Source: a virus. Taken from it: DNA of 64,000 nucleotides. Made by a program: the position numbers and the translations under genes. The notes under the pieces were generated by a model, which was not told the DNA's origin, did no database searches, and was given only the letters and a program-made list of their open reading frames with translations. Positions 19,109 through 57,147 of the stretch are shown piece by piece (positions within the stretch are counted from its first letter, which is position 1; the number at the start of each line of letters is the position of its first letter). The stretch is taken from IMG/VR virus record IMGVR_UViG_3300002835_000017; one strand, 5' to 3'.

Positions 19109-19818
19109 TCTTCATGTGAGTAGAATGATACTATATTATATTTAATATCATTCTGTACTTTTTCAACTTCATGAAATAAATTTTTATCAGAATCCAATAC
19201 TACAAAATTAGGAAAAATTGGATTTACTTTAATATCATTTCCATTTAAATCATGTAATATCAAATGTCCACCATTTGATTCACTCCATTCGTTATTTAAA
19301 AAATATAAAAATACACATATTCTGTTATGAGGTTTTCCATCATCATGTAATTTTATCTCACATCCATTATCGTAAAATTGTAATTTTGTATTTCCAGTAA
19401 ATTTATTAAATAATTTTTCAGGATAATATTTTCTTACAAAGTTTTTTTGAAAATCTCTTAATACTTCATTGTTTATTCTATTAGTTATTTCAGAATCCAT
19501 AGAAGTACCAAATACCCAAGTTGGATAGAATCCACATTCTTCAATTTTTTTCAATTGATATTGGTGTGCTTTATTATAAACATAATCGGCAGTATCTAAA
19601 TCGTTATCTCTTGCTAAATAATTATCATAAACCAATTCTTCCATATAAGATTGGTCATTATATTTAAACCAATAATCATATCTAGAATATCTTACAAAAT
19701 TTGTATTATCTATATAATTTTTTATTTGTTTAAAACCATCTAAATCAATTAGTTCGGAATAATCTTCCAACTTACCGTAAATGTATCCACTATTTCTGTA
19801 ATTTTCTATACTTTCCAT
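19105..19818 (-). CDS. 2OG-Fe(II) oxygenase (prolyl hydroxylase-like)
   Basis: LHDD (HxD), YFLN..GGHL, FHEV. Confidence 0.85.
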   Translation of the reverse strand: MESIENYRNSGYIYGKLEDYSELIDLDGFKQIKNYIDNTNFVRYSRYDYWFKYNDQSYMEELVYDNYLARDNDLDTADYVYNKAHQYQLKKIEECGFYPTWVFGTSMDSEITNRINNEVLRDFQKNFVRKYYPEKLFNKFTGNTKLQFYDNGCEIKLHDDGKPHNRICVFLYFLNNEWSESNGGHLILHDLNGNDIKVNPIFPNFVVLDSDKNLFHEVEKVQNDIKYNIVSFYSHED

Positions 19819-22800
19819 TAAAAATTAATTTTACTATATCCATTTTCTTTTTTAATTTCTATTAATCCATCTACTATATCTCTCATTTGTTCTAAATGTG
19901 AAATTATCCATATAAAATCAAATTGAGTTTTAAGATACTGCATCATCATAAATAGGGATGATAAGTTATCCGAATCCAATGTACCAAATCCTTCATCTAT
20001 TACTAAAAAGTTTGGACGAGGTAAGTTACATACATTAATGAGTGCTACTCTAATTGCTAATCCACTAACAAATTTTTCCATACCACTACACATTTCTAGT
20101 CCCCACTCCTGGTCATCATATACAATTTTAGCATTAATTGATTTACCATCCATCTCCATCGTAACTCCAAAATCAACTACTTGTGCTAAAATATTATTTA
20201 CTTCGTTTTCTATTACTGGCAATGCCTTTGAAATTAATTCATAAGGTATTCCATCTCTCTTCACTGCATCCAAATAATAGGTGTACAGGCGGTTCTTTTC
20301 TTCCAATACCTTAACATCATTCATCTTCTGTTTTATGTCCTCTATAAACGAAGATATGGATGAAATAGAACCATTTAAATTTGTTATATCTTTATTTAAT
20401 TTATTAATTTCAATTCCAATATTATTTTTTGTTTTATTTAGTTCAGAAATTACACTTTCTATTTGTTTATTTTTAGAAATTGTATCTTCATTTTCATAAT
20501 ACTTATTTATATTTTCATTAATAGTATTTAATTGGTTTTCTAATAATTGTTCTTTAGTTTTTAAAGCATCTAATTCAACTTCTGTTTTTTCTAAAACAAT
20601 TTTACTTTTAGAATATGTGTTTTTTAATTCATTATACTCACTATATTGTGTATCTACACCATCTAATGTATTTAATTTAAATTGAATAGAATTAACAATA
20701 TTTTTGGAGGTATTTAATTTGTTTTTTAAAATTACCAACTCATCTTTTGCGTTAATTGCATCTTTTACAAAAACATTATCACAACAAAATTCACAATTAG
20801 GGTCATATTTATGTTCTTCTAAATGTAAAATCTTTTCATTCAATGTTTCTTCTATATATTTTAGTTTTTGATAAGAATTTTCCGCTTCTAAAACTTCATT
20901 TTTAATACTAATATACTTTGAGTAGACAGTTTCGATATCAACATCAACTTCTTCTACTTTAAAAGTTTTATTGTTTACCAAAGAATGTGAAACTTCGGTT
21001 AGAATTGTACTACATTCTATAATTTTATTTTCTTTCGTATTGTATTCTTTATATAAATTTTCTATTTGAGTTTTTAAATTCGTTTTACTTAATTCTAACT
21101 TTGGCAAATCTAAATTGGAATCTATAGGAGTTAATTCTCTGCTTAATCCAACAATTTTATCATTCAAATCAGTTACTTCTATATTTTTATTGTTTAGTAA
21201 TGTTTCTAATGATTTTAATTGTGATTTTTTTTCAATTAATTCCTTACCTTTTTCGGCAAGTTCGGTTGTAAAATCCGTTTTCTTAAAGTTTTTAATCAAT
21301 ACTGAAACTTCTCTAATATCTTCGGTTGCAGTATCATACAATTTATCAAAAATAGTTAACCCCATAAATTGAGCAAGAAGGTCTTTCCTTTCCGATTGTG
21401 ATTTATCAATGAATAGAGCGTTATTACCTTGCAGTGATAGTGCAGTTAGTACAAAATCTTCATATTTTCCAACATATTGTTCAATAATTTGGTTTGTATC
21501 TCTTCTTTCGGTTCCATTTAATGAGGTTTTAGTATCACCATCTTGTCTCCAAAATTGAACATCTACTTTTACATTTTTACCTTTGTTAATTGTTTTAGCA
21601 GTTCTCTGAATACCATAATCTACACCATCTATTTGAAAATATAATGTACAATCAAATTCTGTTTTACGATTATTTAAAATATTAGATGCTTTATATGCTC
21701 TACTGCTTTTATCATATAAACAAAATGATACCGCATCAAATAAAGAAGATTTACCTGCCGCGTTTGGAGCAAATAATCCAACTAATCCGTTTAATTTTGT
21801 AAAATCAATTTTATTCTTTTCACCATAACTAAACATATTTGAAAATTCAAAACGAATTGGTTTCCATTGTATATTACGTTGGATATCATCTTGAACTATT
21901 CTACTATTTATATCTCTATTAATCAGTTCTAGCCCTTTCAAATCTTCAGGAACTACAAATGGCATCATTCTTTCAATATACTCATTTATAAGTGAGTTTT
22001 GATAATTGATATCCGAAATATCTTCAAAGTCTAATTTATTTAATCTATCACCTGTTTTAGATTTAGAAAGAGAATCGGTTCTGATAATTGTGAAATCCTC
22101 AATACCATACCTCATCTTAATTTCAGCCATTACTTTTTTAGTATCGGCAGAATCGGTATTAGATAAACGAACTCTTAAACGAGGTTTTTTTGGCATATCC
22201 GTTACAATAGGAACTTTACCATTATCAACATCCATAGTATAATATCCATAATCATTTTGAATATCAACTTCTTCGTATTTCATACTATCTAAATCCCAAA
22301 CAAGGAATCCGTGCTTATCCAGCGTTTCACCGAAGTTTTGTTGAATCAATGAACCCGCATAAACTATCTTACATCCACTTGGTGAAATCATAGTTTGTCT
22401 TTTATGAATATCACCTAATAGAGCTAAATCGTATCCATCAAACATTTCGGTTGTGAAATGACGAGATGAAACTGTGTATCCAATATCCGTTTGAGAGTTA
22501 TCCACTGGCCCGTGAAATAGAGCAATCTTTTTATTAGAAGATAATGTATTTCCTTTTGGCCAATTTTCTTTTCTATCAAAAATACTAAATACTCCAAAAT
22601 CTACCCCACCAATTCCATACACTTGAGTATCTTTGAGATATGTGAAGTTTGGTAAATTTAGAGCCTCTACAATTGGTGTAAGTACATCCAATCTATCAGA
22701 ATTATTCATATTACAATCGTGATTACCTGTAATAAGAATTGTTTCACAATGTTTAGAACATTCGGTAAATAACCAACTTATTTCTCTAACCAATTCAGGA

Positions 22801-22976
22801 GATAATTCCAATTTAGCATGAGCAATATCTCCTGCTAAATAAATGATTGAATCTTCCGTACCTCTTTTACGAATCTCCTCAAACATTTTTTCAAACACTT
22901 GCCGATACTCATTGTGTCTTTTCACATTACGGATGTGTATATCTGCAATATGATAAATCTTTTTTAATCTACTCAT
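19818..22976 (-). CDS. Fused Mre11/SbcD nuclease - Rad50/SbcC ATPase (gp47-gp46-like recombination nuclease)
   Basis: ADIH, GDIAH, GNHD, GDIH; Walker A APNAAGKS; zinc hook CEFC; signature CSGME; Walker B LVIDEGFGTLD; ISH. Confidence 0.93.
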   Translation of the reverse strand: MSRLKKIYHIADIHIRNVKRHNEYRQVFEKMFEEIRKRGTEDSIIYLAGDIAHAKLELSPELVREISWLFTECSKHCETILITGNHDCNMNNSDRLDVLTPIVEALNLPNFTYLKDTQVYGIGGVDFGVFSIFDRKENWPKGNTLSSNKKIALFHGPVDNSQTDIGYTVSSRHFTTEMFDGYDLALLGDIHKRQTMISPSGCKIVYAGSLIQQNFGETLDKHGFLVWDLDSMKYEEVDIQNDYGYYTMDVDNGKVPIVTDMPKKPRLRVRLSNTDSADTKKVMAEIKMRYGIEDFTIIRTDSLSKSKTGDRLNKLDFEDISDINYQNSLINEYIERMMPFVVPEDLKGLELINRDINSRIVQDDIQRNIQWKPIRFEFSNMFSYGEKNKIDFTKLNGLVGLFAPNAAGKSSLFDAVSFCLYDKSSRAYKASNILNNRKTEFDCTLYFQIDGVDYGIQRTAKTINKGKNVKVDVQFWRQDGDTKTSLNGTERRDTNQIIEQYVGKYEDFVLTALSLQGNNALFIDKSQSERKDLLAQFMGLTIFDKLYDTATEDIREVSVLIKNFKKTDFTTELAEKGKELIEKKSQLKSLETLLNNKNIEVTDLNDKIVGLSRELTPIDSNLDLPKLELSKTNLKTQIENLYKEYNTKENKIIECSTILTEVSHSLVNNKTFKVEEVDVDIETVYSKYISIKNEVLEAENSYQKLKYIEETLNEKILHLEEHKYDPNCEFCCDNVFVKDAINAKDELVILKNKLNTSKNIVNSIQFKLNTLDGVDTQYSEYNELKNTYSKSKIVLEKTEVELDALKTKEQLLENQLNTINENINKYYENEDTISKNKQIESVISELNKTKNNIGIEINKLNKDITNLNGSISSISSFIEDIKQKMNDVKVLEEKNRLYTYYLDAVKRDGIPYELISKALPVIENEVNNILAQVVDFGVTMEMDGKSINAKIVYDDQEWGLEMCSGMEKFVSGLAIRVALINVCNLPRPNFLVIDEGFGTLDSDNLSSLFMMMQYLKTQFDFIWIISHLEQMRDIVDGLIEIKKENGYSKINF

Positions 22977-27773: not shown

Positions 27774-30700
27774 TTATTCTACTTCCAAAATAGGTTCGGA
27801 AGAATCTCTACCAGTTTTATTTACTTTTAATGTATTCGGATTAGATATAAATGTTTCAATCGGAGAACTACCATCTAGTGTAGTTGCCGCAGTATTTTTA
27901 GAACCCTTAAAGAAACTATTTTGTAATCCCCTAGTTAAATCGGAAGTAAATTTATTATGCGTTGGTAAATATCCATTTACATTTGTTACTTCTATTACAT
28001 TGCCCCCAACTGTTGGACTATTTGGTGCACCGAATGGTTGAATATTTAATCGTGTTTCAGTATAAGTTTGAATATCCGAAACATATCCACCACGTGGGTC
28101 TCCCAATCCGTTTGCAGATGCGGTAATTGCAAATTTTTGTATAATTCTTTCTTTTTCTTCCGTAACTAATTGTACTTTAATTCGTTCTTTAACAACTCTA
28201 TTATCTTTATTAAAATAAGTTCTAATCGCGGAACCGTTTTGTGCGTATATACCAAACCCAATTGTTTCAAATTCAGTTTGTCCTATAACTTGATTGGAAT
28301 TTATAATATCAATTTCAGTTACAATTGTAGGGGTTCCTAAATCTGCATCTATAGTTATTTCTTTTTGATAATAATCCGAATTAAAAACAAAATTAGAATT
28401 CATATCAATAGTAGAATCCTGTTGATAATTTTCAGCCAATAAATTATTTACCGATGCAGTTGAAATCAATGCTTCATACTGATTGTTTTCTACCGTTAAA
28501 TTTTCTGATAAATTGGCATCTATTAATGTTTCTTTTTGAATATTTTCAAATGAAATAACACTAGTATCAGATAATTTTATTTCAGTTTCTTTCTGATAAT
28601 CATCTGCAGTAGGTTTTTTGTGAACAACTTTACTTCTTTCTAAAAAGTGTGGTTCTATTAATAAACCAGTAGTTGCTTTAACCCTCGCAGGCAACATCTT
28701 TTTTAAATCTTCAAACATAGATTTCTCATATAGTTTGATTAGATTTATGTAAGCATATATATCTCTATTATCAAATCTTTGGAAATAATAATTTCTTAAA
28801 TTATCCAATGATTTATAATTTGGTTTATAATCATCCGATGGGTCACCAATGTAGTTATCAATATTTAACCCACCAAAAGTTTTAGCAATATCCATATTCA
28901 ACTCTTTTGTAGGAGAGAAGAATAAACCAACTCTGTTAGAATCAGTTGGAGATTGGTCAAATGCTTTTTTAGTTGCTCTACTTTTTGAAGATAAATCTAC
29001 ACCAACACTTCCAGATATTTTTTGATTAGTTAAAGTATATTGGTCTTCGAATCTAACTTTATTAGTTGAAAATCTACTCGCTCCACCATCTGGATAATCC
29101 ATTACAATTGTTCTATCGATTACTTCAAATTGAAATGGATATTCACTTATAGATGGGAAATTAAATGCCGATGCTGATAATAATGGTGTAGTGTTTACCG
29201 AATACAATGAAGCAGTAGTTCCATTTTCATAATCATTTCTAGTCAATCCATTTTCAAAATAAATGTTAGTATCAACATTTATTAACGAAGATGTTTGTGC
29301 TAAATTTTTAGGATATTCAAAATCTAAACGGAAATATAAATCATCGGTTGAAGATGAAACACTATTTCCATTAATCATTTCAGGAAATGAAACGTGTTCA
29401 TAAAATCTTTCAGTATCCAATACTTCAGACCATAAACGGAATTCATCCACACTACCAATATAGTTTCCACCCAATCTAATTGTAGAACCATTATTCCAAT
29501 TTGTATAATTAGAAGATGATATTGATTCTTGGAATATAGTTCTTTCTTTATCGGCTTGTCTTACATCCAATTTTAATCCAGCAGAACCACTACTTACAGA
29601 TATACCAAAAAATTTACCATTAAATATTGGTAATGTTGAGGTTTCTATTGATAGTGACCCACTATAATTAAATTTAACTTTACCATAATCACTATTTGTA
29701 GAACCACTTAAATTTACATTCCAGCCACTACCACTTATTAAAGTATATTGGGATGATTCTAATGGTTTTACAAATAATTCAATCGTATTTGGTTTAAGAC
29801 TAGAAGTATTATTTGTTTGTTTCCACTCCATCTGTATTGATGAAGTTAATGCCATGTTAAGACCCGTAGTAATATTATCTATTACCAACTTACTTTTAGA
29901 TGTATCGTTTATTTCAGGACCTCCAAATTCTAAAATTGAAAGATTAGATGATGGAATACCATAACATGCCATCAATGCGTGAATACCTCTCCTAGTACCT
30001 TTATGTTTTAGTAGATATGGTAAGTTATTTACAATTCTTCTCCAAACTTCGTTAGTTCTTTGTTTGGCCGGATTTGATTCTTTATCATTACCTTCTTTAT
30101 CCTTGCCAAATACATAACTCCACAAATCGGCATCAGCTGCTAAATTTTTAGCATCCCAACTAAATGATTTTAATGTATCAAAAAGTAATTTGTCAGAAAT
30201 GCCATCTTTTGCTTTATATCCTAAACCTCTACTTTTTTCAATTGATTTTGTATGGAAATAGATATTATCAAAATGATGTCCAATCATTGAGAAGAATAAT
30301 AATAAACTTTCGTTTTCATCATTATTAACAATGAATTGAGGTATATTGTTTAATACATAATTTGAATTATTGGCATCATATATATTTGCAAGTTCTTCTA
30401 TATTATTGTACCAATTTTTAACTTCGTTAGATGTACTCAATCTTCGATTAGCACCATTGTAGGGCCAACTTAAAGAAGATGATGTGTATAAGAATTTTTC
30501 AAATCCATCAAATCCGTTTATTAATTGATTTTTCTTTAATTGTTGTCTTTCTGCTTCTTGTATAGATGGTAACGAACCACTATGTGCCTGTGATGCGTTA
30601 GCTGCTGATAGAGCAGTTTCATATAATTCAATTAGTTGTATTTTATATACAAAGTTATCAATACGTTCATTTGCAGAACTGAAATGAACAAAATTCTCCC

Positions 30701-32750
30701 ATAAATAAGTAGAACCAGACGAGTATTCGATATTTAATTCATCCGTAGTTATTAACGATGAACTTAAATATAGTGATACTAACTCATTAGAAGATGTGGA
30801 ACCACTTAATATTATATTATCTAATGATTCGTAATTAGTAGATTGTCCTTTTACAAAGTCTACATCAATTGTAAAATTTGGTCCTTTTATTGGTGGACAA
30901 CTTACATCATTATTTTCTGTTAATACAACCGTTTCAATTAAAGGATTACTCATTAATTTTGTAATCCAGAATGTTGAATTATTCTGTATATTAGCAGGTA
31001 ATGGTGAATATAGTTTTAATATAATTGAATTAACAACATCATTTGGAGCAACAAATGTATTACCTAAATTATCTGTAGACTTTTTAGATAATGTAAAATC
31101 ATCAGTTTCCCAAGATGAAATTATAATTTGCTCATCGTTTCCAAAATTAGCAAGGTGTGTTAGATACTTACTTTCTTTTGAAGGTTCATCGATTTTTAAT
31201 TTTTCAGAAAAAGCATTAAATAAAGCGTTAGTAATTATATCTTCATTTAATGAAAGTGTTGGTAGTGTTAATTTTGTCAACACTTCGTATTCATTACCAA
31301 TTAACTCCTCTGCTCCACTTCGATTATATGGTTTTAGTATTAATGTTATATTAGTACTACCAACCCAGTTAGGATAATTTTCTCTTAATTTTTTAAGATT
31401 AATTTTTATAGAACCGTTTGGTGGTTGATTACTTAATAATCCAATTTTACTACCATCTTTTTGTTTTAACCAAACATCAACTGATGAAACTGCAAAAGAG
31501 GAATATGAAACTTCATAATCAATATTATAATCAGAAAACGATGGTACATCGATTGATTCTGCATATATGACTTCCGTAATAGCAGGGAAATCATTTATAG
31601 CAGTAAATGTTAAAATCACCTCAACTCTAGTTCCTGTTCCAAATTTTTTACTGGTTGGAACAAAAAATATTTTTTTAGAACCGTAAACCTCATTAAAATC
31701 TTTTTGAAAGAATATAGTTACTTCTTTGTCACTAGCTGGAATTTCTAAAACTTTATCAGCCGAAAGATATACTAAAACGGAATCTGCGAATTCAGTATTA
31801 AATGGAATTACTATACTTTTTTCTGTATCCGAATCTTTTACATTAACATTATATTGTATTTGATTTAATACTACTGTAGGTGATTCGGATTTAATTTCTC
31901 TTTCAGCTTCAATTACAACACCTAAACCTGAATTTAATAATGATGCTGGTACTCTAAATGCATAATTTTGTTTTGTTAACCTATCGTAGTTAACAGAATC
32001 TGAACCAAATTGTTGAGCAATTCCAGAATATATGTTTTTGATAAAAATACCATCTGGTACATTACCTTTAATTTCAAAGTTAACAAACCCCCCATCTAAA
32101 ATATTTTTGGGTATTGTAGAAATTCTGTTATCATATAATTGCAATTCTCCATCTACAACTATATTATCTTCAAATACAATTTGATATTTTAAACTTAAAG
32201 TAGTTAATTCCTTTATATTAGAATTAAACAAAACTTCATAACCAACCATTGGATTATCAACGGTTACCACGTCTGCAGGTGGTGTTGGAAGTGTTTGAGT
32301 TCGTTGTAATACCTCTGTTTTAAATCTTAAAGTTATTGTTCCGAAATTGAAGTTTTGGGTTTGTTGTTCTTCCCATACATCATCTATTAATGAATATTCT
32401 GTAACACCGATTCCCTCAACTATTTCATTCGCAAATTGTAGTTGTTTAGTATTAATTATAAATTTTGATAATACTTTTCCATTATCTAAATTTGCAGTAT
32501 AAGTTTTAGGACCATTAAATTGTAAAGATGAATTATATACAATATCAACGGATTTACCATATCCAGCAGATACACCTTCTTCAAAAAATTCTAAATCATT
32601 AGTTTCACTTACTAAATAAATTTTTAACGAAGATGGTGGGTTAGTTGGTCTATACGTGGGGGCATTGTAAGGACCAGTTTGACCTGTATTCCTAGTACTT
32701 CCGTTATTATTAAAATCCGGATAAGCGTAAAGGCTTTCTTGTTCTGCCAT
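27774..32750 (-). CDS. Large baseplate wedge-like structural protein with LamG-like domain
   Basis: YLLKHKGTRRGIHALMACYG (wedge/gpI-like), GSVDEFRLW (LamG-like), LKKMLPAR..TGLLIEP; TATTTATA at 32768-32775. Confidence 0.65.
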   Translation of the reverse strand: MAEQESLYAYPDFNNNGSTRNTGQTGPYNAPTYRPTNPPSSLKIYLVSETNDLEFFEEGVSAGYGKSVDIVYNSSLQFNGPKTYTANLDNGKVLSKFIINTKQLQFANEIVEGIGVTEYSLIDDVWEEQQTQNFNFGTITLRFKTEVLQRTQTLPTPPADVVTVDNPMVGYEVLFNSNIKELTTLSLKYQIVFEDNIVVDGELQLYDNRISTIPKNILDGGFVNFEIKGNVPDGIFIKNIYSGIAQQFGSDSVNYDRLTKQNYAFRVPASLLNSGLGVVIEAEREIKSESPTVVLNQIQYNVNVKDSDTEKSIVIPFNTEFADSVLVYLSADKVLEIPASDKEVTIFFQKDFNEVYGSKKIFFVPTSKKFGTGTRVEVILTFTAINDFPAITEVIYAESIDVPSFSDYNIDYEVSYSSFAVSSVDVWLKQKDGSKIGLLSNQPPNGSIKINLKKLRENYPNWVGSTNITLILKPYNRSGAEELIGNEYEVLTKLTLPTLSLNEDIITNALFNAFSEKLKIDEPSKESKYLTHLANFGNDEQIIISSWETDDFTLSKKSTDNLGNTFVAPNDVVNSIILKLYSPLPANIQNNSTFWITKLMSNPLIETVVLTENNDVSCPPIKGPNFTIDVDFVKGQSTNYESLDNIILSGSTSSNELVSLYLSSSLITTDELNIEYSSGSTYLWENFVHFSSANERIDNFVYKIQLIELYETALSAANASQAHSGSLPSIQEAERQQLKKNQLINGFDGFEKFLYTSSSLSWPYNGANRRLSTSNEVKNWYNNIEELANIYDANNSNYVLNNIPQFIVNNDENESLLLFFSMIGHHFDNIYFHTKSIEKSRGLGYKAKDGISDKLLFDTLKSFSWDAKNLAADADLWSYVFGKDKEGNDKESNPAKQRTNEVWRRIVNNLPYLLKHKGTRRGIHALMACYGIPSSNLSILEFGGPEINDTSKSKLVIDNITTGLNMALTSSIQMEWKQTNNTSSLKPNTIELFVKPLESSQYTLISGSGWNVNLSGSTNSDYGKVKFNYSGSLSIETSTLPIFNGKFFGISVSSGSAGLKLDVRQADKERTIFQESISSSNYTNWNNGSTIRLGGNYIGSVDEFRLWSEVLDTERFYEHVSFPEMINGNSVSSSTDDLYFRLDFEYPKNLAQTSSLINVDTNIYFENGLTRNDYENGTTASLYSVNTTPLLSASAFNFPSISEYPFQFEVIDRTIVMDYPDGGASRFSTNKVRFEDQYTLTNQKISGSVGVDLSSKSRATKKAFDQSPTDSNRVGLFFSPTKELNMDIAKTFGGLNIDNYIGDPSDDYKPNYKSLDNLRNYYFQRFDNRDIYAYINLIKLYEKSMFEDLKKMLPARVKATTGLLIEPHFLERSKVVHKKPTADDYQKETEIKLSDTSVISFENIQKETLIDANLSENLTVENNQYEALISTASVNNLLAENYQQDSTIDMNSNFVFNSDYYQKEITIDADLGTPTIVTEIDIINSNQVIGQTEFETIGFGIYAQNGSAIRTYFNKDNRVVKERIKVQLVTEEKERIIQKFAITASANGLGDPRGGYVSDIQTYTETRLNIQPFGAPNSPTVGGNVIEVTNVNGYLPTHNKFTSDLTRGLQNSFFKGSKNTAATTLDGSSPIETFISNPNTLKVNKTGRDSSEPILEVE

Positions 32751-49337: not shown

Positions 49338-49655
49338 TCAGATAAAAAGTTTTTTCTTTGTTAAAATTTCATATAGAATTTCAACCTCTTCTTCAGTAGT
49401 TAATTCAGGCAAATCATCATCAAACAATCGAAGAGTGTAGACGGTATTTCCTTTTTCATCAAAAAATTCATCAGATTCAGAACTGAATAATGCGGGAGCA
49501 TATTCTATATTTTCTAAAGCATCCTCATCATCTATATCTATCAATGGTATAACATAATAGTGATAAGAATCTACTCCATCTTCTACTTCTATTTTATGAC
49601 ACTTCCATTTATTGAAGCTATTTTCAGTTATTAGAGTCTGTGGTAATATAATCAT
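49338..49655 (-). CDS. Acidic hypothetical protein
   Basis: 105 aa; own promoter at 49674-49704 (TTGT-N19-TATATTTA). Confidence 0.6.
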   Translation of the reverse strand: MIILPQTLITENSFNKWKCHKIEVEDGVDSYHYYVIPLIDIDDEDALENIEYAPALFSSESDEFFDEKGNTVYTLRLFDDDLPELTTEEEVEILYEILTKKKLFI

Positions 49656-49715
49656 AATTAAAACATTTAGAAGTAAATATAATAAAAAAATATGAATTTT
49701 ACAAATTACAGTTTC

Positions 49716-50366
49716 TTATAATATCTTTTTACCATTTTCTTTAAACAATCCTGCGTACACATAATTTGCAAATTGTTTATGTCCCAAAAAACTTAAATGA
49801 TAATCTTCCATTTTACCTTTGGTAGCATCTTTTATATTTTGTGCTCTCGAATCTTCCCAAATAGTTTGGGTATAAAATTCAAAATATTTATAACATTTTA
49901 TTATAGATTTTAAAAAATCATATCTTTGTTCATGACGTTGACGATATACATCATGCCCACTAAAATAATATGAAAAATTAACAATGGTTTCATATTCTTC
50001 TTTACTTTTAACTGTGGTTTTATATCCTGTTTCGGATTTGACTACGTTTCCGCATATAGTATAAAATTCACCTGGAGTTTCAGATGGTATATCAAATCGA
50101 TTTGAAAAAGTTTTATTAACAATTACAATATCGTTTTCCGAAATTAAATGATAATTACTTATTATCTTATCAAATATATAATCATTAGATGCTCCACATT
50201 TACCCAAATTATTTAATTTATATCCCAATTTATTGGCCAATATAACAGGCCAAATTAAATCATCATCATTTTTTTTATATTGTTTATAATAGTCATCCCC
50301 CTCATAGTTTAGGACACATCCGTGTCCAAACGTCATTGAATCGCCAAAAGTCCAAAGTGTTGCCAT
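49716..50366 (-). CDS. SGNH/GDSL hydrolase-like protein
   Basis: FGDSMTFG, NLGKCGASN, DYHLSFLGH. Confidence 0.85.
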   Translation of the reverse strand: MATLWTFGDSMTFGHGCVLNYEGDDYYKQYKKNDDDLIWPVILANKLGYKLNNLGKCGASNDYIFDKIISNYHLISENDIVIVNKTFSNRFDIPSETPGEFYTICGNVVKSETGYKTTVKSKEEYETIVNFSYYFSGHDVYRQRHEQRYDFLKSIIKCYKYFEFYTQTIWEDSRAQNIKDATKGKMEDYHLSFLGHKQFANYVYAGLFKENGKKIL

Positions 50367-50368
50367 TT

Positions 50369-51418
50369 TTAAATTAAAGTTTTTTCAGTTTCGTATAAAT
50401 GATGAAAATTATGTAATACATTTGGAATATTTTTAACTTTATCCAATTCTAACAAAAACAAATTATGTTCTGGATGTTCTGGATTTGCTACATTTTTAAT
50501 TTTAAATTCAGCTTCACTGAATGTACCCCAATCCGAAATTACATTAGTTCTGATATCCCATTTTACTTTACTTTCTCTGTTATCCATATATGATTTAATC
50601 ATTTTATAAAAATCATACATTTCTTTATAATTAGTATCTTGCACCACAAATGAAAAAATATATTCTTTAATTGTTGGTATTTTTGTTATAAAACTTAAAT
50701 TTTCATGTAACACATTCCAATTACCACCAATTCTAGTTTTAGTTTCGTATGTTTCTTTTGTAGCTGCATCTATTGAAATTTCACAAGTATTAACATAACA
50801 ATGTATTCCACTCATCTTCTCCCACATTTCGGGAGTCCATAGTGACCCATTTGTATGTAAGTGAATTGATTTTAATTTTTTAAATTTGGTTGAATCCAAT
50901 GTAATAAGAAACTGTCTAAATGATTTTGAGAAAAATGGGTCAGCCGAACCACTCAATACTAATCTTTCAACAAACGGTGATATTTCGTTATTGATTTCAG
51001 TTAGTTTTTTTTCTACAGTTAATCGTGCATTACCTTTATAATTTATCAATTCAACTCTACAGGATGGACATTGAAAATTACAACTTCTATCAAATGTAAA
51101 ATTAATTACTTTAGGTTTTTTGGTTTTATGTAAAGTATCAACATTTTCACGTGTATTAGGTATAAATTTAAGAGGTACTCTATTACTTTTTAAACTTGCT
51201 AAATACGGACATAAAGTTTCATTACAATATTTGTAACTACCATCGGTTACACTATCTCTTATTTTTTCAGAAATTTCAGAATTAAAGCTAGATACTATAC
51301 CACTACCATCATTTATATCAACTGGTAGCCAAGATGGACAGCACAAAAATTGTTTATTATCCTCCACTTCTGTAAAGTAGAATGGAGCGGTACATATATA
51401 TTTTGATTTATCAATCAT
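50369..51418 (-). CDS. Radical SAM protein with N-terminal auxiliary Cys cluster
   Basis: CNFQCPSC; CTAPF..CCPSW..CNETLCP; HTNG; ISIDAA. Confidence 0.9.
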   Translation of the reverse strand: MIDKSKYICTAPFYFTEVEDNKQFLCCPSWLPVDINDGSGIVSSFNSEISEKIRDSVTDGSYKYCNETLCPYLASLKSNRVPLKFIPNTRENVDTLHKTKKPKVINFTFDRSCNFQCPSCRVELINYKGNARLTVEKKLTEINNEISPFVERLVLSGSADPFFSKSFRQFLITLDSTKFKKLKSIHLHTNGSLWTPEMWEKMSGIHCYVNTCEISIDAATKETYETKTRIGGNWNVLHENLSFITKIPTIKEYIFSFVVQDTNYKEMYDFYKMIKSYMDNRESKVKWDIRTNVISDWGTFSEAEFKIKNVANPEHPEHNLFLLELDKVKNIPNVLHNFHHLYETEKTLI

Positions 51419-51435
51419 CCTTTAATACTATTATA

Positions 51436-51918
51436 TTAAAATATTTTCTTTTTTATATTTTTTTTATCTATAAACACAATCAATGACCATCGTTCACCAT
51501 AAGTTACTTCTTTAACTTCATGCAATCCACTTCCATAAAAACTATATATAGAACCACATATCTTTGGTAAAATTTTCATCGGATTGTAACATATAAGTTC
51601 TCCACCTCCGTAATCTTCATTCAAGCAAACTCCTATATTATATTCACTTCTTTTATCTATATGCGGTTGAAATTTATTTCCTGTTTGAACATTTTGTAAG
51701 TGAATTAAATTAATTGGTTCTACTAATTTTATACTTGTATGTTGTTCAATGTATTCCATTAATCTTACAAAAATCCATTCCGTTAAATCGGTTCGTTCTA
51801 CATGCCAAGCAAAGTATTTTGTTTCATCACTTTCCCACCATTCATCAGATGTATGTTTTTTAAATACACTTTGAAGTGAAATTATTTTTTTACATTCTTC
51901 TTTTGTAAAATTTATCAT
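51436..51918 (-). CDS. 2OG-Fe(II) oxygenase (prolyl 4-hydroxylase-like)
   Basis: PHID, LNEDYGGGEL, LHEV..GERWSL. Confidence 0.85.
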   Translation of the reverse strand: MINFTKEECKKIISLQSVFKKHTSDEWWESDETKYFAWHVERTDLTEWIFVRLMEYIEQHTSIKLVEPINLIHLQNVQTGNKFQPHIDKRSEYNIGVCLNEDYGGGELICYNPMKILPKICGSIYSFYGSGLHEVKEVTYGERWSLIVFIDKKNIKKKIF

Positions 51919-51924
51919 ATAATT

Positions 51925-52497
51925 TTATAATAAAGTTTTATTACTAGATATAGTACTACCATATTTAGCATTATTAGATATAGTAGTTCTCAATATAGAT
52001 ATATGTGTAAGTTTTAAATGAGATGGAAACAATAGTTGAAATTTTATTATATCAAAAATTTCTGAAAATTTTATTTTATTAGATGTAACTATTTTGTTAT
52101 GTTCTAACGTAGTAGGATATAAATTCACAACTCTTAATTTCATATTGTGATGTTTATTTATTAGATTAATGGAAGATTTTTGTAAATTTAATTTACTTTC
52201 TCTATACTCATCAATACTACCATTATTAAGAATAGCCGATGTTAGTATATTAAAAATAGTTTTTTCTTTATATTTCCATTCTTCAAAAAGTTCTTCAAAT
52301 AATTTTTGTTGATAAATTGGATGATATGTATTATTTATAAAAACATCACATTCATTAGCATCTTGTATTATTTTTTCGTAATTTTCTAATGAATAATTAT
52401 TGGTTCTTGAAAATCCAATAACTTCGTTTTCTTTTTTGAGTAGGGTATAAAGTTCTTTACCTAAATTTTGAGTATGACCTGTTATTGCTACTTTCAT
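51925..52497 (-). CDS. Short-chain dehydrogenase/reductase-like protein
   Basis: VAITGHTQNLG, DVFINN, YRESK (YxxxK). Confidence 0.75.
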   Translation of the reverse strand: MKVAITGHTQNLGKELYTLLKKENEVIGFSRTNNYSLENYEKIIQDANECDVFINNTYHPIYQQKLFEELFEEWKYKEKTIFNILTSAILNNGSIDEYRESKLNLQKSSINLINKHHNMKLRVVNLYPTTLEHNKIVTSNKIKFSEIFDIIKFQLLFPSHLKLTHISILRTTISNNAKYGSTISSNKTLL

Positions 52498-52545
52498 TGA
52501 ATTAATTTTTTTGTTTCCTTTAGAATATATACGGCATTGTTTTAC

Positions 52546-53490
52546 TTAAATTAAACTATTATTTTTTAATAAAACACTTTTCTTTTCAGTTTTCTGAATC
52601 CACTCATAGTATTTTTTAGATGCAGTATTTTCTTTTAGTTTTAAATTTAAGTTATATGGGAGTGATTTTTTATAGTTTGATTTATTAAAATAATTGATAT
52701 TAGAATTGGTTACTCCTGCATTATGCATTATGTTATATCTATTATAAAAATCCTCACTTGATGTTGCAAAAACAAACATTAAATCGGGATGACATTGTGT
52801 TTTATATCCACCCTTCCAAATGTTCCATAGTACAGACCACATATCTGCTGCCCATATTTGTAATTCATGATAAGATGGATTTTCTTGTTTTTTCTTGTTA
52901 TTTAATTGGGTTATTTTTTTATATAAATTTTCACAATCACGCTCCACATTTTCCCAAAAAGTATCATCTATATTTTTTAAAATATACTGTGCCCCGATTG
53001 AATTATTATTATTATCGATAACAAGTTGTGGATTTATATCTACTATTTTAACCATTTTATCAAAAACATCTTTGCCTTTAGAAATTATATAGTCATACGA
53101 AATATACCAATGTGTATTAGAACCATAAAATATATCATCGTTTTCAAACTGATTCCAATTTATTGGAACTCTAAATATAATATCACAATCGTGATAAAAT
53201 ATGGTTTCATTTTTTAAATTAGGATGTAATTTAAAATGTTGTTTAAGAATATTAGGTCTTATTGAAGAAATATAATGTTTTGTTATACGAGTATCCTCAT
53301 AGAAAAAAAATCTAGCATTATACCCATTTGATAATTTTTTCCATACTTCTGGTATTTTATTATTTTTTTTTGTGCAAACTATATCAACACATTGAAGGTC
53401 CACCCCCATTTCCATAAAATTATTAAGCATGACTTCTATTTGCCATGCAAAGTATAATTCGGATGGTTGTGCACAAATAAATCTAATCAT
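52546..53490 (-). CDS. GT-A glycosyltransferase resembling GT95/GT96 (Hyp-arabinosyl / Ser-galactosyl transferases)
   Basis: YFAWQ, SIRP, YHDCD (DxD), WAADMW, HNAG. Confidence 0.6.
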   Translation of the reverse strand: MIRFICAQPSELYFAWQIEVMLNNFMEMGVDLQCVDIVCTKKNNKIPEVWKKLSNGYNARFFFYEDTRITKHYISSIRPNILKQHFKLHPNLKNETIFYHDCDIIFRVPINWNQFENDDIFYGSNTHWYISYDYIISKGKDVFDKMVKIVDINPQLVIDNNNNSIGAQYILKNIDDTFWENVERDCENLYKKITQLNNKKKQENPSYHELQIWAADMWSVLWNIWKGGYKTQCHPDLMFVFATSSEDFYNRYNIMHNAGVTNSNINYFNKSNYKKSLPYNLNLKLKENTASKKYYEWIQKTEKKSVLLKNNSLI

Positions 53491-53504
53491 AATTTTTTTA
53501 TAAA

Positions 53505-54101
53505 TTATAATAATTTACTTTTAGCAGAAGAAAAATCGGATTCATATAAAAATATAGTTAAACTAAATCTAATACCCTCTTCTAATAGTTTTACTTCATG
53601 TATATCCGAACTTAAAAATAAAGAATATGACCCTTGTTCTTTGGATTGAGGAACATCCTTAACATATAAATATCCACCAACATAATCTTTAGGGTCTGAT
53701 AATTGGATTACTAAAGTTTTATATGTACAACCAAATTCATCTATGCTTCTAAAATCACGATGAGGCGCAAAAAAATCACCTTCAATATATTTTGTTATTT
53801 TAACCTGATTATTTAAAATAGATTTTATACCGATTTTTGATAATCTACTTAAAATAAAATTTATTAATTCTTTGTTAAACAAATCTAAAAATTTTAATTT
53901 TGCATTTTTTGGTTTGATGGTAATTATTCTACCGTTTTCCGTTTGTAATTGTACAGTAGTTGCACCATTTATTACGGTAGTAGTATCTTTACGGTAATTG
54001 CCATTGGTTGTTCGATATACTACACCATCTATTGAATTAAAATCATCCCAAAAAGATTTTATATATTCACAATCTTCTTTTGAAAATAAAACATTATCCA
54101 T
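53505..54101 (-). CDS. 2OG-Fe(II) oxygenase (prolyl 4-hydroxylase-like)
   Basis: PHRD, QLSDPKDYVGG, IHEV..GIRFSL. Confidence 0.87.
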   Translation of the reverse strand: MDNVLFSKEDCEYIKSFWDDFNSIDGVVYRTTNGNYRKDTTTVINGATTVQLQTENGRIITIKPKNAKLKFLDLFNKELINFILSRLSKIGIKSILNNQVKITKYIEGDFFAPHRDFRSIDEFGCTYKTLVIQLSDPKDYVGGYLYVKDVPQSKEQGSYSLFLSSDIHEVKLLEEGIRFSLTIFLYESDFSSAKSKLL

Positions 54102-54116
54102 AAATAACTTAATGTA

Positions 54117-54254
54117 TTATAGATGTTTTTGTTTAAATAAATTTACAAAGGTAGTAATTATATTCATTGCTTTTAATTTATCATCAGATGATGCTAATGA
54201 TATTTGTGTATTTGCTACTTCTTGAACCGGTATTTTTTTATATATTGTTGCCAT
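54117..54254 (-). CDS. 45-aa small protein downstream of the Hint polyprotein (absent from ORF track)
   Basis: MATIYKKIPVQEVANTQISLASSDDKLKAMNIITTFVNLFKQKHL fills the intergenic gap, A-rich leader. Confidence 0.6.
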   Translation of the reverse strand: MATIYKKIPVQEVANTQISLASSDDKLKAMNIITTFVNLFKQKHL

Positions 54255-54276
54255 TTTATTTTTGTTTATTAATAAG

Positions 54277-56484
54277 TTATTGAAAAACTGCTTGTCTTTT
54301 AAGAGTATTATTTAGTAATTCATTATCCCCTAAACCAGAAACCACAAAATCCTCCACTATAAAGTTATGCTCACTTTCAAATAAAAGATTACCATCTATT
54401 TCTAAATTATAAAAATTATCCACATATTGAATACCTAATTCAACACCTGGTGCTTCAAAAATTGGTTTCCATTCTCCATTATCATAGAATGGATGTAATC
54501 TATCGGAAATCATTCCTTTATATTTTACAACCTCAACAACATCATTTGTAGGGTGTATTAATTTATCAGTTACAACACCTCTTACATATTTACCGTCTTT
54601 GTAACTTAAAATACAATCTCCTATTTCTATATCAATAATATTTTTAAAACTACCATCTTCCATTTCAACTTTGGTTTCAGCAGTGAAACACGATGTTGTT
54701 GTTGTAACTTTATTATGAACTAAAATGTTTTCTGCAAAATAAGTATGATTATCTTTAACATCAATTAAGTGATATACTTTGAATTCACCTTTTAAAGATT
54801 CAATTGATTTAACTTTTACAAGAATACCATCTTTATTAAATAACAAATTACCTACTTTAATATCTTGTGCGTGAGACCATCCGTGTTCCTCAACATAAAA
54901 TTTATGTAAAGGTGTACTTTTAACTTCATCACCATTTTCAGTTACAATATAAATAAGTTCATTTTGAGTAGAAACACGAATACTTGTAGCCGTACCTGCT
55001 CCATATTTTCCTTGTTCATTATTGTAAGTAAGTAAAACATCAGTAGTAGTTAAATCTTCAATGTTTTTATATGTACCATCATTTAACAATATACGAGTTC
55101 CTGCTGGGAAACAGTTGTGGGTTACAATCTTAATATTGATATCATTATCATATAATGCAAATGTATCAGTTTCTTCCAAATCTAAAATGTAAGTTGAAAG
55201 TCCTTCTTCGTTTAAAACTTCAAAATCATTATCAGTAATATCAATAAGATTACCATCTAATTTGAATACCTTATGTTCTCCTGGTATAATTCCTGCAACT
55301 TCTTCGTATCTAATTAAATCAGAAACACTATCATAAATAAGAATATGTTGACCACCATTTGCTCTAAACGAACCACTACCATAGTATAAATGAGATACTA
55401 GATTATTTGGAAGTGATTGTTCTATTTTATTTATTAAAACCGAAGATGTAACATAAGAACCACTTGGTAAAGTTTGTCCAGGATAACTCCAACTTGTAAA
55501 TACCATAACACTATCGGTATCAGGTGTTCCTTCTATACAAAAAGATTTATAAGAACCGCCAATTTCAACATCAGATATTTGTACAGGATTTCCATCCGAA
55601 TCACTAATTAATTCTTCTTCAAAAATACCACCCCATGAATTATCAGTAATAAATTTAGGAAAGTTTGTTGTAAATTCATAATAATGTTTAGATGAAAGGT
55701 TAGATTCATCAATAAAAGATAAAGATTCTGGTTTTTCAAAAACTGCAGTAGGTTCAATTGTTACCAAATTTATTACATCTAATTCAGAACCATATATTAT
55801 GTTAAATGTACGAATTGATTTATGTCTAATGTCATCGGTATCTTCATAATTCATTAAAATATTAGATTCAATATATGATTGAGATATAAATGAATCAAAC
55901 GAATTTTCTAAACTTACACCATCTTGTGTTTGTATTTTATAAAAAGATAATGGATATCTAGCATAAGTTTCATCTTTTATAACAATATCCGGTATATTTT
56001 CGGAATTAACAACTCTTTGTAATCCATCATAAAAAAATTCCGATGATGAAATATACATAGAAGGTATTGAACCAGTTTCGGATGCATCTATAAATAATTT
56101 ATGTAATTCAAATGATGATTTACAATATTCACTATCAAATACAGCAGATTCATCATACGCTAATCTTAATATAAATTTATTATCAGAATCTTCAACATTT
56201 GTTGGATAAACAGTTGATATATCTTCTTCGTATATAACAAATGAGGTAATGTTAGGTTGTGATTGAATACTTTGAGATAAAAAAGTTAAAAACCCACTTT
56301 GGAATGGTTTGTGAATTACCTCCAATGAATCGATATTATTATCAGATAATATTGAAAAGAATTCAGTAAAATCAAGTTGAGATACTGAACTACTCCAGAA
56401 TCCAGTATCGGTATTTAATTCCAATAATCTCAAATTACCAGTTGAGTCTTTTACAAAATCTGCGGAAAATAGTGTTCCTTTCAT
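54277..56484 (-). CDS. Circularly permuted ATP-grasp-like domain fused to three tandem Hint domains
   Basis: N-terminal DFVKD..LLELNTD; Hint1 G286..VTHN457; Hint2 C458FPAGT..STPLH..LVHN591; linker KVTTTTS; Hint3 C599FTAET..FYNL..VVSG; TATTTATA at 56512-56519. Confidence 0.8.
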   Translation of the reverse strand: MKGTLFSADFVKDSTGNLRLLELNTDTGFWSSSVSQLDFTEFFSILSDNNIDSLEVIHKPFQSGFLTFLSQSIQSQPNITSFVIYEEDISTVYPTNVEDSDNKFILRLAYDESAVFDSEYCKSSFELHKLFIDASETGSIPSMYISSSEFFYDGLQRVVNSENIPDIVIKDETYARYPLSFYKIQTQDGVSLENSFDSFISQSYIESNILMNYEDTDDIRHKSIRTFNIIYGSELDVINLVTIEPTAVFEKPESLSFIDESNLSSKHYYEFTTNFPKFITDNSWGGIFEEELISDSDGNPVQISDVEIGGSYKSFCIEGTPDTDSVMVFTSWSYPGQTLPSGSYVTSSVLINKIEQSLPNNLVSHLYYGSGSFRANGGQHILIYDSVSDLIRYEEVAGIIPGEHKVFKLDGNLIDITDNDFEVLNEEGLSTYILDLEETDTFALYDNDINIKIVTHNCFPAGTRILLNDGTYKNIEDLTTTDVLLTYNNEQGKYGAGTATSIRVSTQNELIYIVTENGDEVKSTPLHKFYVEEHGWSHAQDIKVGNLLFNKDGILVKVKSIESLKGEFKVYHLIDVKDNHTYFAENILVHNKVTTTTSCFTAETKVEMEDGSFKNIIDIEIGDCILSYKDGKYVRGVVTDKLIHPTNDVVEVVKYKGMISDRLHPFYDNGEWKPIFEAPGVELGIQYVDNFYNLEIDGNLLFESEHNFIVEDFVVSGLGDNELLNNTLKRQAVFQ

Positions 56485-56547
56485 AGTGTTGTGTTTATTC
56501 GTTTATTCCTGTATAAATATGAGTATTACAAATAAATGATTATTATT

Positions 56548-57147
56548 CTATATTAAGTTTTGTTTTGGTTTAATATCAATTGTATTTCGTAATCTATTTC
56601 TATTATCTAATAGAGAATACGATTTTACTTTTTTAATTTCTAGATAGTTAGTTAATTTATCAATATCTACATTACTTTGATATAGATTTTCACAATATAT
56701 ATTTTCGTATGATATTAATAATTCAATTTGTGGTATATTAGATATTAACTCTTTGTTTTTTTGTAATCTAGATTCCTCCTTTTTGATTTCTTCTTCATTT
56801 TCTGTTATCCATTCATTAGTTATTTCATAACAATCTCTCCAAATGTTAGAAGCCAATGCCCAGCAGTGTGATATCGCACACTCTCGTGTATCATTTCGTA
56901 TCAAACCAATAATTTTATCCCAATTACTCCAATCGAACGTATCTAATTCATTTTCTATTTCACTAATCAAATATTTTACTACCGTATTGTTTTTGTTTTT
57001 AGCCAATAATCGTATTTTATAAATACTCAATATATCCCCATTATCCATTGTTGGTTCATGAATAGTTTCATACCTTTTTTCTGAACCAATCCAATTAAGT
57101 AAAGAGTATCCACCACTTCTACCCATCGCTATTATTAATATTCTCAT
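56548..57147 (-). CDS. Sulfotransferase-like P-loop protein
   Basis: IIAMGRSGGYSL (5'-PSB loop), HEP, LIR..AIS, ISYE. Confidence 0.7.
   Translation of the reverse strand: MRILIIAMGRSGGYSLLNWIGSEKRYETIHEPTMDNGDILSIYKIRLLAKNKNNTVVKYLISEIENELDTFDWSNWDKIIGLIRNDTRECAISHCWALASNIWRDCYEITNEWITENEEEIKKEESRLQKNKELISNIPQIELLISYENIYCENLYQSNVDIDKLTNYLEIKKVKSYSLLDNRNRLRNTIDIKPKQNLI

Follow-up and report, generated by a model that had tools for sequence, protein, structure and literature searches.

A terminal His-Asn pair in a Hint domain cuts the peptide bond that follows it through cyclization of the Asn. Among the described systems built on such domains, the A-type bacterial intein-like (BIL) domains, e.g., that of Clostridium thermocellum (2lwy), combine Cys1, a TxxH motif and a terminal His-Asn with a non-nucleophilic residue at +1 and no endonuclease, and the known examples interrupt a large host protein. 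Hedgehog/Vint domains have Cys1 and a block-B His, lack the terminal Asn and possess a conserved C-terminal extension. In polymorphic toxins, PT-HINT stands between the protein body and a hypervariable C-terminal payload, a toxin domain, which the Hint is thought to release. In the BUBL locus of Tetrahymena, Hints flank a small, folded ubiquitin-like cargo, with the His-Asn of one and the Cys1 of the next facing it; its BIL2 (6y75/6tmm) makes a Lys isopeptide and dispenses the ubiquitin-like domain without ATP (PMC8616854). Pathways for ribosomally synthesized and post-translationally modified peptides (RiPPs), including the ATP-grasp graspetides, are guided by a leader, and their peptides are encoded beside halogenase, 2-oxoglutarate (2OG) oxygenase, radical SAM and sulfotransferase-type genes, with residues that co-vary with the enzymes. 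Here we analyze a phage gene on the minus strand at 54277–56484 of a 64,000-nucleotide window, i.e., the whole stretch of DNA examined, from the IMG/VR record IMGVR_UViG_3300002835_000017, a low-GC (~0.29) contig of an uncultured marine T4-like phage. Its 735-aa product joins an ATP-grasp domain to three Hint units, the last two of which bracket the heptapeptide KVTTTTS. We favor the reading, with a probability of about 0.5, that this peptide is RiPP-like, tethered to an enzyme and set free by Hint chemistry, and not a mere linker.

The open reading frame (ORF) is divided as follows:

55651–56484, minus strand: predicted circularly permuted ATP-grasp domain, residues 1–278 (AlphaFold2 (AF2) model, Foldseek/VIA matches, conserved columns)
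55114–55632, minus strand: Hint1, residues 285–457 (AF2 model, Foldseek, hhalign against Hint2)
54712–55113, minus strand: Hint2, also called BIL-1, residues 458–591 (Pfam PT-HINT, PDB 2lwy)
54691–54711, minus strand: inter-Hint peptide KVTTTTS, residues 592–598 (residue and DNA check)
54280–54690, minus strand: Hint3, residues 599–717, with an extension, residues 718–735 (Pfam Vint, PDB BUBL BIL2)

The three Hint folds proposed in the original prediction, which had been made from the sequence alone, were recovered, Hint1 by fold prediction and Hint2 and Hint3 by sequence searches of Pfam and PDB. Domain models were built on alignments of 132 diverse homologues. For the AF2 model of Hint1 (residues 279–457, pLDDT 93), the top Foldseek matches were BUBL BIL2 (6y75), the C. 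thermocellum BIL (2lwy), DnaB inteins and Hedgehog (E 3e-8 to 3e-4), with a target-normalised TM of 0.75–0.84 against BIL/intein structures, and hhalign aligned Hint1 with Hint2 over 121 collinear columns (E 8.5e-4). As had been predicted, Gly286 takes the place of Cys1, with no conserved Cys or Ser at this position, and the domain ends in H456-N457 followed by C458. His-Asn closes Hint1 in 288 of 293 homologues at a mean column identity of ~27%; among the 132 aligned sequences N457 is invariant, and H456, E437 and D440 each reach at least 90%, a residue pattern far beyond chance. The residue after His-Asn varies freely (C 108, A 86, P 16, Y 14, others; n = 293), and the retention of His-Asn next to a free +1 position fits cleavage by Asn cyclization, not splicing. 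Hint1 thus looks like a Hint reduced to a C-terminal cutter, with cleavage predicted.

Hint2 (134 aa) carries C458, T524-P-L-H527 and H590-N591, with K592 at +1, and the residue check here agreed with the earlier assignment of Cys1, TxxH, His-Asn and a +1 Lys. It contains no endonuclease insert and shows every feature of an A-type BIL, including the non-nucleophilic +1 residue; its matches were Pfam PT-HINT (9e-18) and PDB 2lwy (4e-9), and the BIL-1 catalytic columns are invariant in the alignment of homologues. Hint2 is not a canonical class 1 intein, as the +1 residue is Lys and a homing endonuclease is absent; in relatives, this residue is F, L, Y, W, R or K. The likeness to A-type BILs lies in sequence for Hint2 and in fold for Hint1. 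The phage BILs differ from the known ones in that they form a tandem at the C-terminal end of a ligase, preceded by a Hint lacking Cys1, and bracket peptides of 0–30 aa.

Hint3 has C599 and H664, an Asp in place of the Thr of TxxH, and S716-G717 in place of His-Asn, so that its last residues are V714-V715-S716-G717 instead of the V-H-N of relatives; beyond them lies an extension of 18 aa. The C599 start, the VVSG end and the missing terminal Asn had all been read correctly. Matches to Pfam Vint (2e-7) and to BUBL BIL2 in PDB (5e-4), together with Cys1, the block-B His, the lost terminal Asn and the C-terminal accessory segment, place Hint3 with the Hedgehog/Vint type, a layout that allows N-terminal cleavage only. 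Unlike in Hedgehog, the 'signal' upstream of Hint3 is a heptapeptide, and the extension shows no sterol-recognition-like region. This extension, 'SGLGDN..LN..F.RQ', is a minority type found in ~20 of the 266 Hint-bearing members of the family, of which 179 end in His-Asn-Lys. The proposal of a conserved catalytic asymmetry among the Hints consequently holds for Hint1 and Hint2 and fails for Hint3, since most relatives end in His-Asn-Lys; the last Hint is a complete BIL in ~90% of relatives.

The family was collected with a word-index search, which returned 945 proteins at E ≤0.001 among 8000 candidates scored, and with an exhaustive search of 50%-identity representatives, which returned 262. 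At least 157 IMG/VR contigs carry a family gene, some of them longer than 300 kb, and 185,579 prokaryote genomes yielded a single 2.8-kb contig, binned with a Cyanobium metagenome-assembled genome; the family is thus almost exclusively found on viral contigs. INPHARED phages gave no DNA match to the window and no match to the N-domain, and only generic Hint matches. The body made up of the ATP-grasp and Hint1 is the constant part of the family, and the part after the first His-Asn varies by lineage: it comprises at most 15 aa in 13 proteins (e.g., K, AKSY, PAPPPKL), is of mid-length and mostly Cys-rich in 14, and includes one Hint in 79, two in 181 and three in six. Most family proteins end in Lys or Lys-hydrophobic. 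In two members (P0215, P0219), a 30-aa Cys-rich peptide lies between two BILs; the tail and the inter-Hint segment are evidently equivalent. In L141, one BIL interrupts a Cys-rich tail just before the terminal KKQY, and the tails of the BIL-less relatives P0233 and P0255 are uninterrupted, which argues that BILs came into the tail as insertions. In some tails (P0213, residues 457–531; L092:7632-9266), a Peptidase_S74-like (endosialidase chaperone) self-cleaving motif, a putative third type of self-processing module here, was detected at E 2e-4 to 7e-4, which narrowly misses the Pfam cut-off.

The DNA confirmed the heptapeptide and its encoding of the Thr residues by (ACA)4. Hypervariability of the inter-Hint peptide had been anticipated, and across homologues it ranges from 1 to 21 aa with varied sequence. 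Close relatives carry KITTTTS, KITTSG, KVPTTTAG and KIPTTSGS at the equivalent place. The (ACA)4 microsatellite lies at 54694–54705 (minus strand), and the Thr number among close relatives (TTTT/TTT/TT) is consistent with replication slippage. The layout around the peptide resembles that of BUBL, whose chemistry is ATP-independent with a Lys acceptor, with His-Asn and the next Cys1 facing the cargo, BIL2 being the top structural match of Hint1 and a sequence match of Hint3; the phage cargo, however, is a short peptide, with an ATP-grasp upstream and tailoring enzymes around. The order of body, Hint and variable payload is also that of PT-HINT proteins, except that the phage payloads are short peptides in a tailoring-enzyme cluster with no apparent immunity gene.

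The residues of the variable peptide were found to covary with neighboring enzymes. A Trp halogenase gene and a Trp in the peptide after His-Asn occurred together in six loci, Trp alone in six, halogenase alone in none and neither in 61 (Fisher p 5e-6); the loci were not selected for the enzyme, and the table counts sequences, not independent events. Two sister pairs show the same relation within one gene slot: the halogenase is encoded in P0038 (WSF) and absent from P0055 (FSF), and in P0028 (WSGGYSPPPGYA) it fills the place that a sulfotransferase and an Asp/Arg hydroxylase take in P0031 (FSFYGYGGPPPGYA). In the reverse test, 52 of 80 IMG/VR halogenase loci carried a family gene. Trp was present in 33 of the 34 non-redundant short tails at halogenase loci, making up 9.3% of residues vs 0.67% in the N-domain. 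The halogenase loci were collected by an alignment-based scan, as a single-protein query returned only an unrelated phage.

Two further observations concern the halogenases. Between the sister phages at L239:3854-5081 and L001:11580-12785, the enzyme cluster varies in a single slot, which holds a Trp halogenase together with a peptide starting WS or a sulfotransferase plus Asp/Arg hydroxylase together with one starting FSFYGY. A large sub-family (L091–L170, e.g., L097:12757-14253) is free of BILs and has a ~28-aa Cys/Trp-rich peptide after His-Asn, with a flavin-dependent Trp halogenase adjacent. The pattern of the Cys/Trp tails is x-C-W-C-P-W-x-Y-C-G..C.S..C..C...K-hydrophobic, and such a tail is a candidate natural substrate of orphan phage halogenases.

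A second covariation involves the Thr run of the window peptide and one gene of the neighboring cluster:

52546–53490, minus strand: 314-aa enzyme, phrog_4417, a PHROG of unassigned function, C-terminus ...NSLI (PHROG match)

Exactly three of 110 non-redundant family loci encode this enzyme, namely the window, L038 (peptide RGTTTTTVLPL; N-domain 43% and enzyme 75% identical) and L240 (peptide RSITTAPPPP...; enzyme 66% identical). A Thr run and the enzyme occurred together in these three, the run alone in three, the enzyme alone in none and neither in 104 (Fisher p 9e-5); of the three loci with the run alone, one is a parsing artefact and one lies on a 3-kb contig. The contigs of P0252, with a poly-Thr tail, and of P0215, with its Cys-rich inter-BIL peptide, are too short for a comparison of neighbors. 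The enzyme matched nothing in Pfam at E up to 10, and a weak Atlas lead points to HPAT-type glycosyltransferases. On its pattern of occurrence, it is a candidate modifier of the Thr run. The two covariations (Trp with halogenase, Thr run with the 314-aa enzyme) lend partial support to the original idea of a cargo peptide served by RiPP-like neighbors.

To assess cassette mobility, 180 two-Hint proteins were compared. BIL-1 tracks the N-domain (Spearman 0.80) and exceeds it in conservation, with N-part/BIL-1 identities of, e.g., 0.82/0.92 and 0.71/0.88. The terminal Hint is mosaic (rho 0.33 vs the N-domain): for N-part, BIL-1 and terminal Hint, P0001 and P0007 share 0.82/0.92/0.30, and P0001 and L023 share 0.39/0.24/0.88. 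Hint3 of the window is 86–88% identical to the L023 cassette, at only 47% identity of the ATP-grasp and 39% of the whole N-part, and this His-Asn-less Hint3 is a minority cassette gained horizontally. In the tree of the N-part (ATP-grasp plus Hint1), the deep branches have short or Cys-rich tails with patchy BILs, and the marine crown clade that includes the window is uniformly two-Hint.

Exchange also extends beyond the terminal Hint. The genes flanking the cluster are 82–96% identical between the window and L006/L023. Within it, identity amounts to 47–50% for the ATP-grasp, 29–45% for Hint1, 27–40% for BIL-1 and 30–49% for the first 2OG oxygenase; the small partner protein described below is 36% identical or unmatched, and the genes for the 314-aa enzyme and a short-chain dehydrogenase/reductase (SDR) are present in the window and missing from L006/L023. 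The swapped island spans ~51900–56500 of the window. Ligase, peptide, partner and proximal enzymes were thus exchanged as a unit, as expected of a diversifying product.

The N-terminal domain carries the motifs named in the original prediction, DFVKD at residues 9–13 and LLELNTD at 20–26, and the fold prediction agreed with the circularly permuted ATP-grasp proposed on their basis. The AF2 model of residues 1–292 (pLDDT 94) matched circularly permuted ATP-grasp enzymes with Z 8–10 over residues 1–276 and Foldseek E 2e-6, among them human and yeast glutathione synthetase, YgiC/YjfC, the glutathionylspermidine synthetase GspS, 3n6x and Cp1B. With the non-permuted RimK, TTL and Ddl, the alignment does not start until about residue 50 (Z 5–6.5), which is a signature of circular permutation. 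At the sequence level, residues 1–457 matched nothing in Pfam, PHROGs or NCBIfam, and a profile search of PDB sequences gave only a weak Ddl match (E 2.3), which places residues 8–34 on the C-terminal motif of Ddl. D9/E22/N24 form an Mg-binding-type triad at the N-terminus, and D99, R107, D117, K170 and R225 are also conserved; D9 and E22 are invariant, N24, R107, K170 and R225 reach at least 90% (132 sequences, 27% mean identity), and D117 is near-invariant. The triad and the conserved basic residues presumably bind Mg and ATP, and the N-domain is predicted to be a minimal carboxylate-amine ligase.

Compared with the known permuted ligases (GspS, YgiC/YjfC, eukaryotic glutathione synthetase, Cp1B), the phage domain has the same fold and strand order, with D..E.N at the domain start, and no detectable sequence similarity. 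Their N-terminal substrate-binding region of ~95–145 residues is absent; instead, the phage core is predicted to pack against Hint1 and a 45-aa partner protein encoded immediately downstream:

54117–54254, minus strand: 45-aa partner protein (conserved ORF, complex prediction)

In 82 of 83 loci, the ligase gene is followed within 0–100 nt by an ORF of 43–53 aa. The protein has a conserved Tyr-Lys motif close to its N-terminus, and its C-terminal helix reads F-x-x-Y-F-K-x-K-H-(L/S). Its complex with the ligase was predicted with a score of 0.86, the best control reaching 0.00; as a rough guide, obtained with our own alignments, this level was met by 58 of 80 solved complexes and by two of 110 mismatched pairs. 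Agreement between runs was at least 98% of contacts, with a pLDDT of at least 90 for the partner. Predicted contacts involve residues 8–36, 115–139 and 224–249 of the ATP-grasp and 361–429 of Hint1, so the partner looks like a clasp that holds the ATP-grasp and Hint1, or supplies a missing piece of the minimal ligase.

Around the ligase and partner genes lie the following features:

49338–54101, minus strand: block of tailoring-type genes with a common C-terminal tag, comprising two 2OG-Fe(II) oxygenases, the 314-aa enzyme, an SDR-like protein, a radical SAM protein and proteins of 216 and 105 aa
56548–57147, minus strand: 199-aa gene upstream of the ligase gene, tag ...QNLI, with homologues in the same position in L001, L006, L023 and L240

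Eight consecutive neighboring genes (49338–54101 and 56548–57147) end in [K/N]-x-hydrophobic-hydrophobic, namely KSKLL, NNSLI, NKTLL, KKKIF, EKTLI, GKKIL, KKLFI and KQNLI, although the carriers are unrelated enzymes. Across 64 non-redundant loci, the tag was present in 76% of genes at position +1, 42–55% at +2 to +7 and 3–12% at −9 to −6. In unrelated contexts, 31 of 42 homologues of the 314-aa enzyme retain it and their neighbors lack it, which argues that the tag is a real signal. No leader peptide or RiPP recognition element (RRE) domain was found at the phage loci, where the enzymes carry this short tag instead; and in contrast to leader-guided RiPPs, the peptide is here fused to the C-terminus of an enzyme, with release by Hint predicted. 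Elsewhere, the window encodes a gp6-type baseplate wedge, PhoH, a carbamoyltransferase, 2OG-Fe(II) oxygenases and a radical SAM gene. Three very large minus-strand ORFs of 1753, 1052 and 1658 aa (13570–18831, 19818–22976 and 27774–32750) lie in the structural region near the gp6-like baseplate gene.

If the peptide is indeed tethered for modification and release, the gene product would be the larger of two proteins in a phage-specific machine, the 45-aa partner being the other. The sequence after the Hint1 His-Asn would be a lineage-variable ribosomal peptide attached to the machine; tagged neighboring enzymes would modify it while it is tethered, and Hint chemistry would free it, replacing a leader peptidase. 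In the window, Asn457 of Hint1 and Cys458 of BIL-1 would act on one bond, N457–C458, detaching the body. Cyclization of Asn591 would cut N591–K592 and free the Lys592 amine, the amino end of the peptide, and an N-to-S acyl shift at S598–C599 would form a Cys599 thioester on Ser598, to be resolved by water or another nucleophile (hydrolysis or capture). We infer the cleavages, the modification and release of the peptide, and the ligation target of the ATP-grasp. From analogy with GspS and with the fungal Cp1B of E-64 biosynthesis, which acts after an Fe/2OG oxygenase in its own pathway, we guess that the ATP-grasp may N-acylate the released peptide or ligate it at its C-terminus. A bolder form of this mechanism, which we regard as rather unlikely, is a leaderless factory, in which the core peptide sits on a ligase scaffold, enzymes are recruited by their tags, and the product leaves pre-activated for head-to-tail cyclization or ATP-grasp ligation. 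Asn cyclization would bare its amino end and the Cys1 thioester would activate its carboxyl end, releasing, e.g., an O-modified KVTTTTS. With the same low likelihood, such a factory would correspond in nature to intein-based peptide cyclization, with diversity supplied by phage cassette swapping.

The product of the gene may instead be only a ligase–Hint1–partner complex, with the BILs and the terminal Hint as selfish or neutral cassettes in a tolerant C-terminal tail and KVTTTTS as a slippage-prone spacer discarded as waste; we consider both parts of this explanation possible, if doubtful. Hypervariable spacers, many of them rich in Gly, Pro or Thr, the (ACA)4 repeat with its varying Thr counts, horizontal exchange of the terminal Hint, patchy BILs in the deep clades, the insertion in L141 compared with P0233, and the existence of members with tails of 1–13 aa all agree with it. 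Neither the halogenase–Trp nor the enzyme–Thr-run covariation is expected of a waste spacer, however, and it is because of these two tests that the explanation was downgraded. The conservation of CWCPW.YCG..C.S..C..C in Cys/Trp-rich tails of ~30 aa also speaks against a mere spacer, as does BIL-1, which is conserved above its host domain with all catalytic residues invariant; decay of cassettes behind the Hint1 His-Asn would be neutral, yet none decay.

Two other explanations retain the Hint chemistry and assign it a different outcome. In a conjugation of the BUBL kind, BIL Cys1 thioesters would move the upstream segment, body or peptide, onto a Lys amine to give an isopeptide, the acceptor being the conserved Lys after each His-Asn or a target protein. 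BUBL BIL2 is among the closest structural relatives of Hint1 and Hint3, and Lys occupies +1 or +2 after most BIL His-Asn ends (K, FK, LK, IK, YK), in line with the common His-Asn-Lys termini; this precedent and the frequent Lys keep the variant alive. Against it, the segments between the Hints contain neither a ubiquitin-like domain nor any other folded cargo, a target is not apparent, Lys is absent after Hint3 of the window, and the covariation is explained no better than by release of a modified peptide. We judge conjugation improbable, with regard to either acceptor. The original prediction had offered as its own alternative that Hint1 splices itself out in the manner of a class 2 intein, with Cys458 as the +1 nucleophile. 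Cys does directly follow the Hint1 His-Asn in the window and in 108 relatives, but +1 is Ala, Pro, Tyr, Ser, Leu, Val or another residue in 185 of 293 homologues, members devoid of a downstream Hint still have His-Asn before K, AKSY or PAPPPKL, and loss of Hint1 would break the predicted partner interface, which involves both the ATP-grasp and Hint1. This candidate was rejected on the +1 residue, unconstrained across the family, and has next to no chance of being correct.

Release of a tethered, modified peptide, the reading preferred here, has several points to answer. Only one of 66 loci with homologues of the 314-aa enzyme has a family gene within 10 kb; these homologues mostly lack a nearby family gene, so that the enzyme family is not specific to the system. 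Trp occurs without a halogenase in six loci, e.g., P0023, with none within 3.7 kb downstream. Both covariation tables count sequences; in terms of lineages, the halogenase link comes down to two clades and the two sister contrasts, and that of the Thr run to three lineages. Many inter-Hint segments comprise 1–3 residues (R, K, RF, WSF) or are Gly/Pro-rich, and such short segments look like linkers unless the BILs splice and the flanks join. A mobile terminal Hint and patchy BILs in deep branches fit selfish elements too, and Hint3 of the window, with Asp for the Thr of TxxH, may be sluggish. The conserved ATP-dependent ligase, finally, would have no explanation if thioesters already provide activation.

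Together, the parts of the system are known: a permuted ATP-grasp, an A-type BIL and a Vint/Hedgehog-type Hint, in an arrangement that resembles PT-HINT release, BUBL and RiPP tailoring. In the literature, we found no description of a phage ATP-grasp fused to Hint or intein-like domains, nor of a RiPP with intein-like domains. Our results suggest that the predicted partner clasp, the enzyme-residue covariation and the swapped island are new. Even on a conservative reading, the family still offers an example of a Hint pared down to C-terminal cutting alone and of a site where intein-like cassettes accumulate. If the favored reading is true, large aquatic phages hold a widespread modular route to modified peptides, undescribed for viruses, which combines Hint/intein release for biosynthesis with a split permuted ATP-grasp ligase and tag-recruited tailoring enzymes. 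It would provide natural substrates for orphan viral enzymes, i.e., phage flavin halogenases and the numerous 2OG-Fe(II) oxygenases of phages, and peptide engineering would gain a new scaffold that processes itself. The swapping of the island between genomes that are otherwise nearly identical is a hint that it may serve in conflicts of phages with their hosts or with each other.

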